A stretch of DNA of 57,330 bases, from NCBI GenBank assembly GCA_964549305.1, contig CAZJVM010000009.1, forward strand, positions 1-57,330, in the 5' to 3' direction. Origin of the DNA: an uncultured bacterium (GTDB taxonomy: Bacteria > Schekmanbacteria > GWA2-38-11 > J061). The translations under genes and the position numbers were made by a program. Shown piece by piece: positions 9,049-57,321 of the stretch; position 1 is the first letter of the stretch, and each line of letters starts with the position of its first letter. The notes below the pieces were generated by a model. It was not told the DNA's origin. It saw only the letters and a program-made list of their open reading frames with translations, and searched no databases.

Positions 9049-9513
9049 ATGGCAGAATTACCGGAAGAGCTGAAAAAGCTTTTAAAAGATTCCGAATCCG
9101 TCAAGATACTTGCCACCGTCGATGAAAAGGGAAACCCTCACGCCGTATTGAAGGATTCTATGACAATGTTAGACAGCGGCGAAATCGCTTACGCGGAAGA
9201 CCTGGATTCTTCATTTTCAAACAAGAACATGGTGCGAAGCATCTGGTTTGACAAACATATTTCCATAAACATTACAAAAGGCGACGAAAGCTATCAGGTA
9301 AAAGGGAAACCGAAAAAATGCCTTATTACCGGTCCCCTCTTTAAGGAATTTCTTCTCAGGGAAAGAAAAAAAACAGGCGACAAATCCGATATTCAGTCCG
9401 TATGGATTGTATCCGTCGAAGAAGTGCGCAATCAATCAAGAAACAAGCGCAGAGAGGAAGAGTGGGAAAACAGACCCTATTTCAACATACATCTTGATAA
9501 ATTGAGAAAATAA
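9049..9513 (+). CDS. pyridoxamine 5'-phosphate oxidase-like (split-barrel flavin-binding) protein
   Basis: KILATVDEKGNPH, SNKNMVRSIWF, SYQVKG; AAGGAG RBS; 18 nt after the radical SAM gene. Confidence 0.75.
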   Translation: MAELPEELKKLLKDSESVKILATVDEKGNPHAVLKDSMTMLDSGEIAYAEDLDSSFSNKNMVRSIWFDKHISINITKGDESYQVKGKPKKCLITGPLFKEFLLRERKKTGDKSDIQSVWIVSVEEVRNQSRNKRREEEWENRPYFNIHLDKLRK

Positions 9514-20169: not shown

Positions 20170-20694
20170 TCATCCGGTCCAGGTGATATTGCGAAATCCC
20201 GCCCTCGTATTGCGATACCTAATCACATCGGGTTCAATCTTTATCACCCTGTAGTTGAATTCACCGGAAAGGCGTTTTGGATCAAGTCCCATTATTTCAA
20301 GGCACTCGCTGAACTTTGCGGGAGACGATTTTGAAGAGATAACCTGCGCTTTTCCCCACATCTGAAGTCCCTTTGCGCCGAAAAAATCCTTTTTGGAGTC
20401 ATAGGGAGATGCCATCGATAACGCGACCTTTTTGTTTTTTCTCAGGTTTGCGAACTTCCCTCCTCCTTCGGAAAAGATATAGATAGTAAGTCCGAAATGT
20501 TTGTATTCAAGCGGTGTTACGCGGGGATTGTCATCGTGTGTCGTGCCGAGATGAAGCACCTTGTTTTTATCCATATAACGGCAGACTTCCTTTTCAAATT
20601 CTTCAACGGAGATTTTATCTTTAAGGGTAATGCCGTTTTTTTTAAAGACTTCCAAAAGGCGCGGTGAAAATTTTGGAACTGAAATTTTAGGCAC
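20170..20694 (-). CDS. pyridoxamine 5'-phosphate oxidase family protein
   Basis: VLHLGT..DDNPRVTPLEY, SEGGGKFANLRKNKKVAL, KGLQMWG, IKIEP; GTG start with AAGGA. Confidence 0.8.
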   Translation of the reverse strand: MPKISVPKFSPRLLEVFKKNGITLKDKISVEEFEKEVCRYMDKNKVLHLGTTHDDNPRVTPLEYKHFGLTIYIFSEGGGKFANLRKNKKVALSMASPYDSKKDFFGAKGLQMWGKAQVISSKSSPAKFSECLEIMGLDPKRLSGEFNYRVIKIEPDVIRYRNTRAGFRNITWTG

Positions 20695-50381: not shown

Positions 50382-51076
50382 AAAACCAGATTTTGATAAT
50401 CGAAGACGACTCCAAGCTCGTCAGAAACCTGAAGGAATATTTATCAGGTGACGAATTTTCCGTCTCCCATGCCCCTGACGGCAGAAAAGGAATTGAAGCT
50501 TTCACGCAGTCATCTCCCGACATCATTCTTCTCGACCTTATGCTTCCGGAAGTTGACGGCCTGGAAGTGTGCCGCGAAATCAGAAAAACAAGTATGGTCC
50601 CCATCATTATGATTACCGCTAAAGGCGAAGAAACGGATGTGGTAGTAGGGCTTGAAATCGGAGCAGACGACTACCTTGCAAAACCCTTTAGCATGAGAGA
50701 GCTTTTCGCGCGCATAAAAGCGGCGTTGCGCCGTTCGAAGGAAATGAACGAACGACCTCTCAAATCAGACATAATGAAATATTCTTCCTTCACCGTGAAT
50801 ATACCAAAGCGAAAAGTCGAAAAAGGCGGAAAAATGCTTGACCTTACCGTTACGGAATTCAACCTTCTCAACCTCTTCATAACGAATCCCGGAAAAGTCT
50901 ATACGAGAAACACGCTTATTGATTTTGTCCGTGGAAAAGATATTACACCATTTGACCGCTCAATAGATTCCCATGTCAGCCATCTTAGGCAGAAAATCGA
51001 AGATGACCCCAAACACCCCAAATACATAAAAACGGTGTGGGGCGTCGGATATAAATTCGATCCTGACGATGTTTAA
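50378..51076 (+). CDS. OmpR/PhoB family response regulator
   Basis: IEDD, LDLMLP..DG, TAK, GADDY.AKPF, DRSID.H.S.LR.KIE, TVWGVGY. Confidence 0.95.
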   Translation: MKNQILIIEDDSKLVRNLKEYLSGDEFSVSHAPDGRKGIEAFTQSSPDIILLDLMLPEVDGLEVCREIRKTSMVPIIMITAKGEETDVVVGLEIGADDYLAKPFSMRELFARIKAALRRSKEMNERPLKSDIMKYSSFTVNIPKRKVEKGGKMLDLTVTEFNLLNLFITNPGKVYTRNTLIDFVRGKDITPFDRSIDSHVSHLRQKIEDDPKHPKYIKTVWGVGYKFDPDDV

Positions 51077-52484
51077 AATTAAAAGCATTTACAGCAAAAT
51101 AGTCCTTACGATATTTGCCTTTATAATAACCATATCAGTTGTCGTTTTCGCTTTCTCCGCGTTTATCAGAATAGTAATCGACGAGCCTTCCATTTACAGC
51201 AGGGAAATAACGAGAGAAATAAAATTGATGGGAAAACTGGTAGAAGATAAACTTCCCGATGCCCTCGATAATTCCGCGGATATGATAATCCTCAGAAACC
51301 TCCTTGAAGATTTTTCCCGGAAAACCGCCTCAGATTTAAGAATTGTAAAAATGTCAGATATGAAACCGGTGCTTTCTGTTTATTTCGACGAAGCATCGCA
51401 CAGTTCATTTACCAACGACAACCTGGAGCATATAATTTCCACTGTGCGAAAAGATGACGTTTCAAGGGATTATATATCTGAAGGAGGCGGTGAAATGCTT
51501 CTAAACGTAGTAATGACAAACAAAAACAAGGAAGAATACCTTCTGCAAAGCAAACATAAAATGTACTACCCTCAGGAAAGAAGAATTTTTTTGTGGACAA
51601 TTCTTTTTCTCTGCATACTCGTCATAGCCCTTGCGGCATTTCCTATATCGAGAAACATTACAAACCCCATCAACAAGCTCATAGATGCGTCCCAAAAACT
51701 CTCGAGCGGAAAATTCGGGTACGCTGTCGACATAAAATCGGGCGATGAAATAGGACGCCTTGCGGAAAATTTTAACGCAATGTCCGAAAGAATCCATCAG
51801 CTTCACGAAAACCGCAAAAACCTCCTTGCCGACATATCGCACGAACTTCGCACTCCTTTGACGAGAATCCAGACAGACGCGGAAATCATCATAGACAAAA
51901 ACCTCGATAAGGAGAAAGCAACGGAATATCTCACGGATATTTCCGAAGAAGTCAAATGTATGAATAATCTGATTCAGGGTCTCTTTGACCTTTCGAAAAT
52001 AGATCTCGGTTTCGAAACACTTGATATTCACGAAGCAAACCTCGGAAATATAGTGGGAGAAATATGCCAGCAGTTTGAGGCAAGCCTTAAATACAAAAAT
52101 ATCGAACTCGAGATTTCCGACAATCTCACGGCACAAAACATAAAAGCCGACGTGCCGAAAATAAAACAGGTGCTTGCAAACCTCATATCAAATTCCCTGA
52201 AGCATACGGATGAAGGCGGAAAAATTTCAATTAACGGCGAGAGAAGAAACGCTGATATTTTAATAAGCGTTAAAGACAACGGCAAAGGGATTCCCGAAGA
52301 TGAACTGCCGAAGATTTTCAACCGTTTTTACAGAGTGGACAAATCGCGTGCAAGAGACTCAGGAGGAAGCGGACTGGGTCTTGCAATCAGCAAAAAAATA
52401 GTAAGCTTCCACGGAGGTGAAATAAAAGCCGAAAGCAGACCCGGCGAAGGTACTACGATTTCCTTTACACTGCCGGTTGACTGA
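51069..52484 (+). CDS. HAMP-domain sensor histidine kinase
   Basis: Two TMs, HAMP DEIGRLA..FN.M, H-box SHELRTPL, N-box, DNGKGI, FYRVD, GGSGLGL. Confidence 0.95.
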   Translation: MFKIKSIYSKIVLTIFAFIITISVVVFAFSAFIRIVIDEPSIYSREITREIKLMGKLVEDKLPDALDNSADMIILRNLLEDFSRKTASDLRIVKMSDMKPVLSVYFDEASHSSFTNDNLEHIISTVRKDDVSRDYISEGGGEMLLNVVMTNKNKEEYLLQSKHKMYYPQERRIFLWTILFLCILVIALAAFPISRNITNPINKLIDASQKLSSGKFGYAVDIKSGDEIGRLAENFNAMSERIHQLHENRKNLLADISHELRTPLTRIQTDAEIIIDKNLDKEKATEYLTDISEEVKCMNNLIQGLFDLSKIDLGFETLDIHEANLGNIVGEICQQFEASLKYKNIELEISDNLTAQNIKADVPKIKQVLANLISNSLKHTDEGGKISINGERRNADILISVKDNGKGIPEDELPKIFNRFYRVDKSRARDSGGSGLGLAISKKIVSFHGGEIKAESRPGEGTTISFTLPVD

Positions 52485-52600
52485 GGATTGCCGTGAAAAG
52501 AGGCGCCTACACACAATTTACATTTTTCACATGCGCTTTTAAAAAAGATGTTTTATATAAAGAGCATATGTTTCAATCCTTTTAACGGGGGAGGATTAAT

Positions 52601-52966
52601 ATGAAAAGGAAATCAGCATTTCTGCTTGTTGTATTCTCGGTTATTGTTTCTCTTCTGATTGTTTCCTGTGTACCTGTAAGAGTGCTTAACCGCAACTTTG
52701 ACTCCACTTATGTCTATCTTAAATATTCGCCTGAAGATGCGTACAAAGGCATTAAAAAAGGCGAAATCAAAGGGACTATCACGGTGGATGGCGCGTATCT
52801 GCCGCCGAGATATTCTCACAGTGACGACGGAAAACTCTCCAGGTTTGCCATCATAACTCACGGCAAACACAAACTAACAATACACGCCGACGGATACAAA
52901 ACCTGGAAAAAGGTTATTTTCTTTTCAGGAAGATATCTCAGATTGAATGTGGAGCTTGAAAAATAA
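52601..52966 (+). CDS. small lipoprotein, PEGA-like domain
   Basis: GGAGG RBS, lipobox IVSC, P.DA...VDG, G.H.L.I...GY..W...L...L.K. Confidence 0.65.
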   Translation: MKRKSAFLLVVFSVIVSLLIVSCVPVRVLNRNFDSTYVYLKYSPEDAYKGIKKGEIKGTITVDGAYLPPRYSHSDDGKLSRFAIITHGKHKLTIHADGYKTWKKVIFFSGRYLRLNVELEK

Positions 52967-52973
52967 AACCACA

Positions 52974-53327
52974 TCAGGGTCTTAACATGGTGAGAAGCAT
53001 TTTGTATTTTGACACTGCCCTTAGTGCGTGAGGTATGTTTGCGGGCATAAGCACCATTTCACCTTTTTTGGCATTGACGGGTTTTCCGCCTATGGTGATT
53101 TCAACCTCGCCGTCTATCACCTGCACCACCGCGTCAAAGGGCGCGGAATGCTCGCTTAACCCCTCTCCCCTGTCAAATGAAAAAAGGGTCAATGTTCCGG
53201 CTTTATTATCAATCAGGGTTTTGCTAACAACTGCGCCATCGGCATAAGCTATAAATCCGTCAATATCCACTGCAACGGATTCGGGAAGAAGCGATTTTTC
53301 GAATTTCTCTCCATTATCTTTTTTCAT
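52974..53327 (-). CDS. cupin domain protein
   Basis: TLF.FD.GE.LSEHSAP.DA, MPANIPHAL.A. Confidence 0.88.
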   Translation of the reverse strand: MKKDNGEKFEKSLLPESVAVDIDGFIAYADGAVVSKTLIDNKAGTLTLFSFDRGEGLSEHSAPFDAVVQVIDGEVEITIGGKPVNAKKGEMVLMPANIPHALRAVSKYKMLLTMLRP

Positions 53328-53372
53328 AACAAACTCCTCTCATATTTATTATACAATAATTTGGCGCGTGAA

Positions 53373-53816
53373 TTAATCACTCTTCTCATTTCCGGTCCCG
53401 GAATTTTCCATCATTTCGCCGCCTTTTTCTACAAAGAGAATTTTTATTTCCGGCCTGAATATGTATTGAAAAATAAGAAAATAAATTACAAGGTCAACGA
53501 GAATCAGTAATCCGTCATCGCTCAAATTAAATTTTTTTAAGGCAAAGACTTCATATTCGGCAATGTAGTAGGCAACGGAAAAGAAGAAATCCAATATCAC
53601 GAGGCGATATGTCCACTCCTTGAAATTGATAAGCCCGTACCCGATAAATACCCCGAACAATGAGAGAAAGAGAGAAATAACGGGGTAACGGAAAAGAAGA
53701 GTGTTCACATCCATACCAGGTTCATAGGGTGACAAATAAAAGCCAAAGGCGATAAAGGAATTATAAAAATAAAATGCGGCAATGAATGACAGCCAGAAAG
53801 GTCTTTTTTTTCTCAT
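53373..53816 (-). CDS. four-TM hypothetical membrane protein
   Basis: Start MRKKRP overlaps the comF stop (ATGA); four hydrophobic segments. Confidence 0.65.
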   Translation of the reverse strand: MRKKRPFWLSFIAAFYFYNSFIAFGFYLSPYEPGMDVNTLLFRYPVISLFLSLFGVFIGYGLINFKEWTYRLVILDFFFSVAYYIAEYEVFALKKFNLSDDGLLILVDLVIYFLIFQYIFRPEIKILFVEKGGEMMENSGTGNEKSD

Positions 53817-54514
53817 AAATGCCTTCTTGAAATAGTGAAGAGACCCACTTCCGCGGCGCCCGCGCTTTTGAGCAGTCCGGCGCATTCCGTTGCCGTTGCG
53901 CCTGTAGTGATAACATCATCCACGAGAATAATTCTTTTATTTCTTATATCTTTCCGCAAATTCTTTCGCAGCGCAAAAGCTCCCTTTACATTCTCTTTTC
54001 TCTCATTTCTTCCCAGCCCGACCTGTTGTTTCGTATATTTCAGGCGTCTCAAAAAAGGAACTGTTTTTTTGCCGGCGTAGATTGAAATCATTCCGGCGAT
54101 TATCGATGCCTGGTTGTAACCTCTTCGCCATTCACGGAAAGGATGCAAAGGAACGAAGGTTACATAGTCGAAATCAAATGCGAGAATTTCCTCCCCTCTC
54201 CTTTGGAGATATTCGTCCACAATTTCCCTGCCAAGCCTTATCCTGCCCCTGTATTTAAAATTATGTACGGCGCTTTTGAGGATTCCTTCGTGAATGCCAA
54301 GAGAAAAAGACTGTGAAAAACCGCGCGGGGATTTTCTTTGCGCCTCTGTTGCCACCGGCGATTCCATACCAATCGATTTGATACAGTCTTTGCAAATATA
54401 TTTCCTTCCCTTGCCAAAAAGAGGTTTCAGGCAATTGAAACAACAGGGAGGAAAAAAAATATCTTCCAACCCCATAAGCAGATTTCTTATGCGGTATTTG
54501 AAGTTATTGTACAT
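53813..54514 (-). CDS. comF: ComF family phosphoribosyltransferase-like competence protein
   Basis: FPP.C..C...C..C zinc ribbon, FKY.G, VPLH, RGYNQ, QVGL...R..NV.GAF, LVDDVITTGAT. Confidence 0.92.
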   Translation of the reverse strand: MYNNFKYRIRNLLMGLEDIFFPPCCFNCLKPLFGKGRKYICKDCIKSIGMESPVATEAQRKSPRGFSQSFSLGIHEGILKSAVHNFKYRGRIRLGREIVDEYLQRRGEEILAFDFDYVTFVPLHPFREWRRGYNQASIIAGMISIYAGKKTVPFLRRLKYTKQQVGLGRNERKENVKGAFALRKNLRKDIRNKRIILVDDVITTGATATECAGLLKSAGAAEVGLFTISRRHL

Positions 54515-54720: not shown

Positions 54721-54743
54721 TGAACATACTAAATATTTGTTCA
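54721..54743. promoter_or_regulatory. palindromic operator candidate
   Basis: TGAACA-N11-TGTTCA, 12 nt upstream of the AGGAGG RBS of the 54769 gene. Confidence 0.4.
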
Positions 54744-54768
54744 GAACTCTATACAGGAGGTTCCTTTT

Positions 54769-55656
54769 ATGGAATGGGAAAAGTCAGCAGTAGAGTATTT
54801 CGATAACAATGTTGTCGCGGGACCCCCTCAGATTGAACTTCGCAAAATATATACAGAAAAGATTGCCCGCCAGAGAAAAAAGGATAAAGTCACTCAGGAA
54901 GATGTTGAAAAATGTATAAAGGACTATGATGAATTCTTCGGAGAAGCTTTTACGCAAAGATTGTGCGACTGCATGGCAAAGGGTGAAATGCCGGAAGTGC
55001 CTCCCACGCAGAAGGAAGACACTCCATGCCTTTATCAGGTTGAAACCTGTCATTCAAAATACTTCGGATGCCCTTCGCAGATAATAGATGTAAAAGAGCT
55101 TGTTTATCCCGTTATCGATAAAATGGAAGAATCGAAAATCACGGAAATACTCGCTGACAAGGCACACGGTCCTCTTCTTTCCCACAACAAGCTCACAGTT
55201 TCCATTTCAAGTTGCGCGAATGTGTGCACAGGCGGTGAATCAAAAGACATCGGCATATGGGGAGTCGAAAAACCCAAAGTCAACGATGATATAGAATGTA
55301 TCGACTGCAAGAAATGTATGCACGTCTGCTGGGATGCCGCGGTAGCTTTTGAAAACGCGAAAAAACCCTCTATAAACGAAGTCCTTTGCAAACTCTGCGG
55401 CGCCTGTATAAAGGCATGCCCAACAGGCACGATTTCATCGGAAAAGAAAGGTTACCGCATTTTCGTGGGGGGCACATTCGGAAGAATGCATACCGTAGGC
55501 AAAGAGATATTCAGAATGGGTGAAAAGGAAGATGTCTTCAAAACACTCGATGCCGTAATAGAGATGATAAGGGAAAATCAGGAAAATGAGCACTTTCTTG
55601 CCCATGTGCTTCAAAAATCAGGCATAGAGTACATAACAAGCAGAGTTTTTAAATAA
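54769..55656 (+). CDS. sulfite-reductase-like Fe-S protein (PCP_red-like N-terminus, Cx6C/Cx3C site, 2x[4Fe-4S] ferredoxin insert)
   Basis: MEW...A...E..AR....VT.EDV; CHSKYFGC; ISSCANVC; DIG; CIDCKKCMHVC; CKLCGACIKACP; GYRIFVGG..GR; AGGAGG RBS. Confidence 0.8.
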   Translation: MEWEKSAVEYFDNNVVAGPPQIELRKIYTEKIARQRKKDKVTQEDVEKCIKDYDEFFGEAFTQRLCDCMAKGEMPEVPPTQKEDTPCLYQVETCHSKYFGCPSQIIDVKELVYPVIDKMEESKITEILADKAHGPLLSHNKLTVSISSCANVCTGGESKDIGIWGVEKPKVNDDIECIDCKKCMHVCWDAAVAFENAKKPSINEVLCKLCGACIKACPTGTISSEKKGYRIFVGGTFGRMHTVGKEIFRMGEKEDVFKTLDAVIEMIRENQENEHFLAHVLQKSGIEYITSRVFK

Positions 55657-55698
55657 TCAGTTAGAACCTAAACGGAAGAAATCACGACGGAGGACAAG

Positions 55699-56403
55699 AT
55701 GAAAGACATTCCATATTTCGAAGAGATTATTAAGGGAATCAAACCAATGAATCCCCGGGAGTTGACCACATACAACGGTAACGACATCACTGAATTTCGC
55801 CGCATAGAAACCGATATGATGACGCAGGAAGTTATCTGTTATTCGGCGGAAAAAGTTGACAGAATCATAACGATGAAGTCAACGATTCTCGGCGGCAAGC
55901 TCATTGTATGGGCAACGAATATCGTTCCGTCAGATGAATACGACCTTCCCATATACTCCTCCGAGCTTGTGCAGGGAAGTCATATAAGCCTTCGCGTTGA
56001 TATGATACCTACGGCAGACTGCGGACGGGACCCTGAATATCTCAATAAATACATAGCGCCTATGGAACCTCTTTGGGAAAAATACAAGGACATAGAAGGA
56101 ATGTGCCCCGAAAGGTTTCTTTGGTTTAAGGTAATGCTTTCTCCCTTCTATACAGGCGGCAAATTCAAATATGAGCAGGAAGGCATAGAGGAAAAATGTC
56201 TTGAAATAACCAAAGACTATCTTGAGCTTTACATAAATTTCTGGAAGGAAGCGGAAAAGAAAGATCCCGAGCAGATGAAACCTCTTGTTGGAAGGAAGCA
56301 GGATATGTTCAGAACTCTGAGAGAAAAGGACCCGGGCGGAGGTCCATTGAAAAAAGCTCTTGGCGAGGAAAAAGCCGAGATTATCCTTTCGATGCTCTTT
56401 TGA
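55699..56403 (+). CDS. ferredoxin-dependent bilin reductase / red chlorophyll catabolite reductase (RCCR)-like protein
   Basis: P..EYDLPI...ELVQ....VD..P..D...DPEYL.KY, W....LSP, YL..Y, KDP....L...LGEE.A.....LF; GGAGG RBS. Confidence 0.72.
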   Translation: MKDIPYFEEIIKGIKPMNPRELTTYNGNDITEFRRIETDMMTQEVICYSAEKVDRIITMKSTILGGKLIVWATNIVPSDEYDLPIYSSELVQGSHISLRVDMIPTADCGRDPEYLNKYIAPMEPLWEKYKDIEGMCPERFLWFKVMLSPFYTGGKFKYEQEGIEEKCLEITKDYLELYINFWKEAEKKDPEQMKPLVGRKQDMFRTLREKDPGGGPLKKALGEEKAEIILSMLF

Positions 56404-56562
56404 ATAATTTCCCGAAGATTAGTTGATACAGGGTTTATTCTCTGACTCTTGTCAGGTTAGTGGAAGTGACAATGATAACGGGAGATACCTGCGTCGCGAA
56501 AGTTTGATAATTCTCAGTTCGAAAATTTTTAAACCCAAGGGATAAAAAAAGGAGAATCGGCA

Positions 56563-57321
56563 ATGCTGCTTACGGAAAAGTACCTGATTGACCTTAAAGC
56601 AATATACCTCGATGTAATAGCCAAGTATAACGGTGATGCCCCCTTTGAAAAGAAGGACTGGAAATTCCTCATTAATGAAGGAAACGCGGAAACAAACGAA
56701 AGCAGGGGAACTTTTTTTGAAAAAGCGTGCGTTTCGGCAATACGGGGCAAAGTAATATTGCCCGGAGAAAGCGAAGAGGTCACAATCCAGTGGTTGGGAG
56801 TTCAGATTTTTCCTTCAAACCCTCTTATCCCGGCATTTGTAGGGGTTTTTGAACACGTATCGGAAAAGAAAGGCGAATTTTGCCCTGCCTTCTATGACAT
56901 CTACCCCATAATACCATTTGAAGAAGACAAGAATTATCTCATGGGAATTATGAAGGATGCCGCGCAAAAGCACGGAAAGGAATACAGCGACCTTGCCGAA
57001 GCATACAAAAAAATGTTCAGGGTGCAAAATACCAAAACAGGCGTAGGATACGGAATAGGCCTTGCTCTTGGTCCCGAAGAGACTGATGCGGCATATTATG
57101 AAACCGCGGCAGAAGGAATAATGAAAGGTTATTTTGATATTGTGGAGAAAAGAAAAAATGACAAACCATCTCCCGCCCACCTTGAAGAAATGTTCAGACA
57201 AAGGTCGGAATGGGTGCGCTTTACATTTATGGAAAACCGCTTCTTCTTAGGCGGACTTCAGGTTGGCGTACCGGCGGAATGCTTTATGCTTCATATGCTT
57301 CCGCCTGTTGTGAAATTTTAG
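56563..57321 (+). CDS. divergent coproporphyrinogen III oxidase (HemF)-fold protein
   Basis: G..FEKA.V, P.NP.IP, D..P...FEED, Y..IVEKRK, R..W V.F....R....GL..G, LPP.V.F align in order with HemF; AAGGAG RBS. Confidence 0.75.
   Translation: MLLTEKYLIDLKAIYLDVIAKYNGDAPFEKKDWKFLINEGNAETNESRGTFFEKACVSAIRGKVILPGESEEVTIQWLGVQIFPSNPLIPAFVGVFEHVSEKKGEFCPAFYDIYPIIPFEEDKNYLMGIMKDAAQKHGKEYSDLAEAYKKMFRVQNTKTGVGYGIGLALGPEETDAAYYETAAEGIMKGYFDIVEKRKNDKPSPAHLEEMFRQRSEWVRFTFMENRFFLGGLQVGVPAECFMLHMLPPVVKF

Follow-up and report, generated by a model that had tools for sequence, protein, structure and literature searches.

A conserved gene pair encoding a sulfite-reductase-like Fe-S protein and a bilin-reductase-family protein in uncultured Schekmanbacteria, a candidate two-component reductase

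In an uncultured member of Candidatus (Ca.) Schekmanbacteria, a sulfite-reductase-like iron-sulfur (Fe-S) protein (g1) and a protein from the family of ferredoxin-dependent bilin reductases (FDBRs; g2) are encoded side by side, followed by a HemF-fold protein without the HemF catalytic residues (g3). The three genes lie at the end of contig CAZJVM010000009.1 (C9), the whole of which (57,330 bp) is the window analyzed here; the assembly (GCA_964549305.1, hereafter G000) amounts to 2.94 Mb in 169 contigs and is 100% complete by marker genes. Our comparison across genomes reveals that g1-g2 is the conserved unit, with g3 a recent addition. Judging from sequence, we find it somewhat probable that g1 feeds electrons to g2, with the latter acting as a cofactor-less radical reductase of an external conjugated substrate. 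The three genes are as follows:

54769-55656, plus strand: g1, open reading frame (ORF) of 295 aa
55699-56403, plus strand: g2, ORF of 234 aa
56563-57321, plus strand: g3, ORF of 252 aa

A preliminary description of this DNA, made from its letters alone, had read the cluster as an anaerobic tetrapyrrole-transforming operon. Its observation is confirmed by the analyses below, and its interpretation is partly supported.

Results

The g1-g2 pair is the conserved unit of the cluster

Five Ca. Schekmanbacteria genomes were compared, i.e., G000, G001, G002, G003 (same genus as G000), and G004 (another genus). In all three with a g2 ortholog (G000, G003, and G004), g1 and g2 are adjacent and co-oriented. 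G003 keeps g1-g2-g3 on a 3,088-bp contig, at 84, 81, and 72% identity, respectively; G004 keeps g1-g2 (70 and 66% identity); next comes a 243-aa protein bearing a twin-arginine translocation (TAT) signal, and g3 is missing from the locus. Only a 35% identical g2 paralog, adjoining a small ferredoxin, was found in G002, and G001 gave no g2 match at E ≤ 1e-40. Matching contigs of 32749, 23656, and 26429 bp suggest three further co-occurrences of g1 and g2.

Orthologs of g3 (47-57% identity) are present in 5/5 of the other g2-bearing genomes searched, where they lie at a great distance from g2 or on a different contig. Since g3 is missing at the G004 locus and its orthologs elsewhere stand apart from g2, the conserved unit is g1-g2, and g3 is a recent addition to it, within one genus. 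The conserved co-localization anticipated in the preliminary description thus holds for g1-g2 in Ca. Schekmanbacteria, with the three-gene unit limited to a single genus. This maintained adjacency fits a dedicated electron donor, the role that had been proposed for g1.

g2 looks like a working proton-coupled reductase

The three proteins were scanned with Pfam and NCBIfam profiles against curated cut-offs. Each matches a Pfam family above cut-off (NIR_SIR for g1, Fe_bilin_red for g2, and Coprogen_oxidas for g3), and the three folds had been named correctly. NCBIfam equivalog scores are far under their cut-offs for all three, and none of them can therefore be regarded as a regular ortholog of an already named enzyme.

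For g2, the match to Fe_bilin_red (PF05996) reaches 61.5 bits (cut-off, 31) and covers profile positions 34 to 221 of 228, whereas RCC_reductase (PF06405) gave only 11.1 bits against a cut-off of 24.9 (E = 0.23); its earlier characterization as RCCR-like was therefore not borne out. NCBIfam scores were 49.8 for PebB (PRK13250; cut-off, 327) and 20.3 for PcyA (PRK02816; cut-off, 206). In a search of the Protein Data Bank (PDB) with a g2-family profile, tomato HY2 (6KMD; E = 2.5e-10) and Guillardia PebB (6QWQ; E = 9.5e-10) came out on top, PcyA and PebA followed at ~1e-3, and no RCCR chain was returned at E ≤ 1. Homolog searching yielded 50 protein clusters, with the full-length ones 53-82% identical to g2 and the named ones belonging to Ca. 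Schekmanbacteria and Thermodesulfobacteriota metagenome-assembled genomes (MAGs). The clade is narrow; in an exhaustive profile search, the number of representatives was 15 at E ≤ 1e-30 and rose to 68 at E ≤ 1e-10 and to 182 at E ≤ 1e-3. A protein-atlas search with g2 returned Fe_bilin_red clusters only.

Residue equivalences were counted in the PDB profile alignments and taken from Table 2 of PMC13446030. Mean column identity in the g2 alignment is 74%, and both positions associated with proton donation are invariant in 21 sequences; these are (i) Glu89, at the position of PcyA Asp105 and PebS Asp105, and (ii) Asp211, within an invariant DPG motif at the position of HY2 Asp256, PebS Asp206, and PcyA Asp220 (aligned with HY2 chain residue 239). 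Asp101 of g2 aligns with PcyA Asp119 and not with Asp105. Active pre-1 enzymes likewise have Glu at the Asp105 position, according to PMC13446030. Given this precedent and the invariance of Glu89 and Asp211, g2 looks like a working proton-coupled reductase. The PcyA subtype is characterized by Glu76 and His88; with Trp71 at the position of PcyA His88 and HY2 Asp116, and with a PRK02816 score far under its cut-off, g2 is not of the PcyA type.

g1 combines a sulfite-reductase-type cluster motif with an inserted ferredoxin

Pfam assigns g1 to NIR_SIR (PF01077; 51.2 bits versus a cut-off of 27), together with several Fer4 families. All 12 of its cluster cysteines (12/12) are invariant in an alignment of 17 relatives. 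Four of them (C94, C101, C149, and C153) are spaced like those of the siroheme-coupled cluster of sulfite reductases, and the remaining eight (C177, C180, C183, C187, C207, C210, C213, and C217) form the two CxxCxxCxxxC motifs of an inserted 2x[4Fe-4S] ferredoxin domain. g1 would thus carry up to three [4Fe-4S] clusters, a revision of the two with which it had been cast as electron supplier.

The AlphaFold2 model of g1 (pLDDT, 87.3) is closest in Foldseek to the sulfite-reductase half of the F420-dependent enzyme Fsr (7NPA/7NP8; E = 7e-16, query TM-score 0.54-0.58), with DsrB next. HMMER aligned residues 124 to 293 of g1 to Fsr residues 443 to 610, with ISSCANVC opposite ISGCPNGC; this alignment covers only the second cysteine pair (C149/C153) of g1. 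The NCBIfam model TIGR02912 gave 54.7 bits, far under its cut-off. The NIR_SIR_ferr half-domain (PF03460) had no match in g1 and is present in a 333-aa paralog on contig C55 of the same genome. Where this half-domain would be, the N-terminus of g1 (about residues 1 to 75) is helical and PCP_red-like. The PCP_red domain (PF08369) expected in g1 by the preliminary description is below threshold in g1 itself (13.6 bits versus a cut-off of 32.5; E = 0.07) and finds support at the family level, where 5/17 aligned relatives match at E ≤ 0.1 (best E = 7.6e-6) and a g1 paralog on contig C54 of the same genome scores 27 bits.

g3 keeps the HemF fold without the HemF catalytic residues

Coprogen_oxidas (PF01218) matches g3 with 38.3 bits (cut-off, 31.8), and the NCBIfam HemF model PRK05330 gives 52.7 against a cut-off of 297. 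The AlphaFold2 model of g3 (pLDDT, 93.9) resembles HemF structures at TM-scores of 0.78-0.81 in Foldseek, followed by PcyA, PebA, PebB, and RCCR at 0.52-0.60 (E = 4e-5 to 5e-3). As g3 is near HemF and then near these reductases, HemF and the FDBRs do resemble each other in fold, as the preliminary description had stated. This likeness is structural only; kinship of the g2 and g3 families at the sequence level was rejected, with hhalign returning a probability of 0.6%.

To map g3 onto human coproporphyrinogen oxidase (CPOX; 2AEX), 108 was added to the chain index to obtain the residue number, an offset verified on Asn260, Arg262, Asp282, and Leu407. Relative to CPOX, His258 is replaced by Val93, Asn260 by Val, Ser244 by Gln81, Asp400 by Asn225, and Gly402 by Phe227, while Arg262 is without a counterpart; Asp282 (D112), Arg401 (R226), and Gly406 (G231) are kept. 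In bioRxiv 10.64898/2026.07.02.735896, His258 is described as catalytic, Arg262 and Ser244 as taking part in substrate recognition, and Asp400, Gly402, Asn260, and Asp282 as intolerant to substitution. With the HemF catalytic residues lost, g3 cannot, as far as its sequence tells, be an oxygen-dependent coproporphyrinogen oxidase, in agreement with its earlier description as rewired. Across 22 sequences of the g3 family, 47 columns are invariant, among them positions that line the active-site loop of HemF. Public records name g3 relatives "coproporphyrinogen III oxidase."

Both folds are expanded in this and other sediment genomes

G000 holds 17 Fe_bilin_red matches (13 above cut-off) and 9 Coprogen_oxidas matches (7 above cut-off), with the corresponding paralogs scattered over the genome. 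An alignment of 16 FDBR-like paralogs shows Asp in 14 and Glu in 2 at the equivalent of Asp256; at the equivalent of Asp105, 9 have an acidic residue, 6 have Asn, like HY2, and 1 has Tyr. Across the five Ca. Schekmanbacteria genomes, FDBR-like matches number 17, 13, 8, 3, and 3; five unrelated sediment MAGs with the g2 clade have 14, 14, 22, 10, and 16, and among 14 control genomes such matches were restricted to Synechococcus. The preliminary description had noted the lack of heme oxygenase and phytochrome in the window, and this extends to the whole genome; there, no match was obtained to heme oxygenase (PF01126) at E ≤ 0.1 or to the PHY domain and Phycobilisome families, and no ChuW/HutW match lay above cut-off.

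The FDBR-like paralogs of G000 are variously accompanied. Small ferredoxins adjoin those designated C28a and C134 and lie two genes away from C7a. Operons for a tungsten-type aldehyde:ferredoxin oxidoreductase (AFOR) hold 1/16 FDBR-like and 3/9 HemF-like paralogs (C30, C66, C25, and C101; loci L030, L035, L028, and L039). Other paralogs adjoin FAD_binding_3 proteins, UbiD, Amidohydro_2, an O-methyltransferase, DUF169, and DUF362.

Several side observations concern the same surroundings. AFOR genes recurrently adjoin HemF-like or FDBR-like genes, at loci L011, L059, and L060 as well as in G000, and the gene order on C66 is UbiD, HemF-like, AFOR. On C5 and C28, DUF169 genes flank FDBR-like paralogs; on C8, they flank a HemF-like paralog. 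An operon on C7 of G000 (L074:2081-6147) encodes a DUF169 protein with PCP_red, another DUF169 protein, a 66-aa 2x[4Fe-4S] ferredoxin, two proteins of ~175 aa, and a short-chain dehydrogenase/reductase. A third expanded small redox family in G000 is that of the PNPOx_N split-barrel flavoproteins (~180 aa), with 20 matches in 2.9 Mb, two of them in the window (20212-20592, minus strand; 9058-9432, plus strand).

Other partners accompany g2 and g3 orthologs elsewhere

Outside the phylum, 37 loci with g2 orthologs were compared (12 from genomes and 25 from metagenomes). The most frequent neighbor there is a large protein of 450-884 aa (c2; 16 loci, e.g., L012:4403-7054 and L019:6135-7955) with no Pfam family except a weak dockerin-like stretch. 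The commonest immediate neighbor is a flavin-reductase-like protein of ~289 aa (c3; weak Flavin_Reduct plus a C-terminal PCP_red, E = 3e-4), found at 12/37 loci and mostly directly downstream of the g2 ortholog. The two alternative partners of g2, i.e., g1 here and c3 elsewhere, both carry a PCP_red-like domain. A 73%-identical c3 ortholog in G000 adjoins a HemF-like paralog on C79 and not g2, and a DUF169-PCP_red protein adjoins another HemF-like paralog on C8; in all, 4/7 PCP_red genes of this genome (3/6 loci) adjoin an FDBR-like or HemF-like gene.

Further neighbors of g2 orthologs are a PNPOx-like protein of ~180 aa (9 loci), AFOR, at times with a HemF-like gene (9 loci), and a reductase combining old yellow enzyme (OYE) and Pyr_redox_2 domains (6 loci). 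A HemF-like gene lies within ~3 kb of the g2 ortholog at L011, L020, L059, and L060; its identity to g3 in the two compared (L011 and L020) is just 24-27%. Orthologs of g3 itself (57%) occur at L080 (G006:C8) and L081 (G005:C11) amid URO-D-like and MtrH-like methyltransferases and a RACo corrinoid activator, flanked by FAD_binding_3/FAD_binding_4 flavoproteins. This setting looks like an O-demethylase/aromatic-compound cluster for the anaerobic O-demethylation of methoxylated aromatics.

Two candidate links to tetrapyrroles were considered and rejected. The bilirubin reductase BilR is marked by an HGDR motif (PMC10769871); this motif is present in 0/6 OYE neighbors, five of which have HGHEGY at that position, with the sixth, a 117-aa fragment, ending earlier. 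In dark-operative protochlorophyllide reductase (DPOR), the helix reported to contact protochlorophyllide spans residues 398 to 420 (PMC12022308); PCP_red maps weakly (E ~1.5) to BchB residues ~484 to 529 and not to this helix.

As side observations, a 589-aa ORF at L020:9735-11501 (minus strand) combines Coprogen_oxidas and AFOR_N, which points to a natural HemF-like/AFOR fusion or, alternatively, to a frameshifted pair. In two other genomes (G005:C14:242810-250059 and G009:C205:33286-40220), a 590-aa PCP_red protein is encoded at a distance of 4.6-6.7 kb from FDBR-like genes and may be another type of partner.

Discussion

We propose that g1 and g2 would constitute a two-component low-potential reductase. 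In this model, g1, with up to three [4Fe-4S] clusters, would pass single electrons to g2, whose cofactor-less FDBR fold would hold a planar conjugated substrate and reduce one C=C bond via radical intermediates, with Glu89 and Asp211 supplying the protons. As the cell apparently makes no bilin, the substrate would come from, and be taken up from, outside the cell. A linear tetrapyrrole, e.g., a bilin or a chlorophyll/heme breakdown product, is a serious possibility for this substrate, albeit one that we place somewhat short of probable; for another conjugated or aromatic compound, we would put the case close to evenly balanced. Family precedent points to the former, and the paralog sets and aromatic-catabolism-like neighbors point as strongly to the latter. 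AFOR, OYE, PNPOx, UbiD, and O-demethylase-like neighbors, along with the many paralogs, would fit a broader reductive metabolism of conjugated/aromatic compounds at least as well. Only family membership ties the locus to a tetrapyrrole. As an open proposal, g3 may bind or transform a related ligand.

Several results weigh against g1 being a donor dedicated to g2. Outside the phylum, tblastn detected g1 at none of the 12 genome loci of g2 orthologs, and a g1-like protein is absent from the recurring neighbor clusters of the 36 loci with a callable anchor ORF (L055 being without an anchor). In G000 itself, two full-length g1 paralogs (on C54 and C16) stand alone, away from FDBR-like genes, so g1-type proteins need no g2. 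Comparison of g1 residues 1 to 53 with c3 residues 234 to 285 by hhalign gave a weak link (37% probability; E = 3.6e-4). PCP_red as a specific mark of FDBR/HemF partners was rejected, given that only 3/43 PCP_red hits in nine other genomes lie within 3 kb of an FDBR-like or HemF-like hit and that these three represent one same orthologous g2-c3 pair. Moreover, g1 keeps the sulfite-reductase-type cluster motif and could itself be an enzyme. Were g1 an autonomous small sulfite-reductase-like enzyme of the Dsr-LP/AsrC type, its position beside g2 would reflect shared regulation or chance; this would suit both the solitary paralogs and the identity of its best structural and sequence relatives (the sulfite reductases Fsr and DsrB, and TIGR02912 among the NCBIfam models). 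We nevertheless regard such autonomy as quite unlikely, for g1 is without the NIR_SIR_ferr half-domain that the C55 paralog has, all of its NCBIfam scores fall far under cut-off, and its adjacency to g2 persists over two genera at 66-70% identity.

A dedicated anaerobic operon whose three products all act on a single tetrapyrrole would explain the resemblance of the g3 model to both HemF and FDBRs, as well as the retention of g1-g2-g3 in the same-genus genome, and to our knowledge the characterized FDBR/RCCR and HemF relatives do act on tetrapyrroles. The separation of g3 from g2 in other genomes speaks against this reading, as does the failure to find a heme oxygenase or the anaerobic heme-degrading ChuW in G000; 17 FDBR-like and 9 HemF-like scattered matches also make a single pathway improbable, and we consider the one-tetrapyrrole operon unlikely overall. 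That g2 and/or g3 kept only the fold, to serve as non-catalytic ligand-binding or carrier proteins, seems more doubtful still. Although g3 is without HemF His258, Arg262, and Asp400, and neither protein has a known substrate, both proton-donor positions of g2 are invariant, the g2 family is strongly constrained (53-82% identity across phyla), and the invariant columns of the g3 family likewise count against this reading. Least probable is that g2, like canonical FDBRs, synthesizes a bilin to serve as the chromophore of a light sensor or antenna. Family membership and HY2 and PebB as the nearest solved relatives speak for this role, but the genome-wide searches for heme oxygenase, PHY, and phycobiliproteins were negative, and a count of 10-22 FDBR-like matches per related sediment MAG does not suit it.

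The proposed g1-g2 reductase can be set beside known systems. With PebB, HY2, and PebS, g2 shares its Pfam family, its best solved-structure profile matches (6QWQ and 6KMD), an acidic residue where PcyA has Asp105, and an Asp where HY2 has Asp256 and PebS has Asp206. It differs in having Glu for Asp at the first of these positions, Trp71 at the PcyA His88/HY2 Asp116 position, and a sulfite-reductase-like Fe-S protein as partner in place of a free plant-type ferredoxin, in a genome where no heme oxygenase was found. The pre-PcyA (pre-1) clusters of non-photosynthetic bacteria offer another parallel. There, an FDBR with Glu at the Asp105 position occurs in a heterotroph (PMC10151467, PMC13446030) and is encoded beside an Fe-S protein (PMC10151467); in contrast, those clusters carry a heme oxygenase, two V4R proteins, and a bilin-binding globin (PMC10151467), none of which is present at the g1-g2-g3 locus. 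Like the C-terminal half of Fsr (7NP8/7NPA) and like DsrB/AsrC, g1 has an NIR_SIR domain into which a 2x[4Fe-4S] ferredoxin is inserted, and a C-x3-C aligned with the Fsr ISGCPNGC; unlike them, it has a PCP_red-like helical domain in place of the N-terminal siroheme-holding half-domain. As for g3, it shares with HemF/human CPOX (2AEX and 8T7W) the fold, a Pfam match above cut-off, and equivalents of Asp282, Arg401, and Gly406, and differs in lacking His258, Asn260, Arg262, Ser244, Asp400, and Gly402.

In the literature covered, which left subscription journals outside, no functional work was found on the Schekmanbacteria FDBR lineage, its Fe-S partner, or its paralog expansions, beyond outgroup use. 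Rockwell, Martin, and Lagarias (2023) place sequences from Ca. Schekmanbacteria within the outgroup of an FDBR tree, on its RCCR side, for outgroup use only and as uncharacterized (PMC10151467). A 2026 paper in Protein Science mentions "uncharacterized lineages" (PMC13446030).

The wider interest of g1-g2 lies in what such proteins could be doing in these organisms. The known role of FDBRs is to make pigments for harvesting or sensing light, and HemF is known as a heme-synthesis enzyme that requires oxygen. Here, both folds are multi-copy in bacteria where no photosynthesis genes, heme oxygenase, or bilin receptor was found, and both are linked to low-potential redox partners. Provided that the FDBR-like proteins are active, radical reduction without a cofactor, as performed by FDBRs, would be used far beyond pigment synthesis, and its substrates could be bilins from the environment or conjugated compounds unrelated to them. 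Speculatively, and with a probability that we would set low, some uncultured sediment/aquifer anaerobes may possess a large, undescribed toolkit for breaking down or respiring on linear tetrapyrroles (e.g., bilins and chlorophyll catabolites) from decaying phototrophs or heme proteins. Each genome would hold 10-22 cofactor-less enzymes with the FDBR fold and several with the HemF fold, every one having its own Fe-S, flavin, or tungsten (AFOR) partner. The g1-g2(-g3) cluster would then be one module of this toolkit, in which an Fe-S protein derived from sulfite reductase would inject electrons directly into the bound pigment. Independent of any such role, the "coproporphyrinogen III oxidase" label on g3 relatives can mislead the reconstruction of heme pathways in anaerobes.

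Cluster layout and surrounding sequence

Upstream of the cluster lie three ORFs whose translations, judged by eye, resemble a sensor histidine kinase (51069-52484, plus strand, 471 aa), a cupin (52974-53327, minus strand, 117 aa), and, divergent from the cluster, a ComF-type phosphoribosyltransferase (53813-54514, minus strand, 233 aa). No link between these ORFs (51069-54514) and the cluster is evident. At the other end, the operon had been suggested to continue downstream. The contig ends 9 nt past the g3 stop, and the ~525 nt beyond g3 on the same-genus contig are without an ORF of >70 aa.

Within the cluster, the ORFs and Shine-Dalgarno-like motifs agree with the arrangement described at the outset, i.e., three co-oriented genes with gaps of 42 nt (g1-g2) and 159 nt (g2-g3) and a ribosome-binding site for each, read from the sequence as GGAGG ahead of g2 and AGGAG ahead of g3. 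The other features are as follows:

54721..54743, no strand assigned: inverted repeat TGAACA-N11-TGTTCA with perfect 6-bp arms, 25 nt upstream of the g1 start
54755..54760, plus strand: AGGAGG ribosome-binding site of g1, from the sequence, 8 nt before the ATG at 54769
56404..56562, plus strand: g2-g3 spacer of 159 nt, in which a promoter-like site lies at 56449-56476 and the plus strand shows no terminator-like site

The promoter-like site in the spacer is weak, with the promoter count of the region not above that of shuffled sequence, and the terminator scan of the region was likewise no better than shuffles. The corresponding spacer in G003 measures 79 nt. The inverted repeat confirms the palindromic site that had been noted ahead of g1; the automated repeat search, at the settings used, did not report it. 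Not conserved in G004, it is kept in G003 as GAACAT-N11-ATGTTC and represents a candidate operator.

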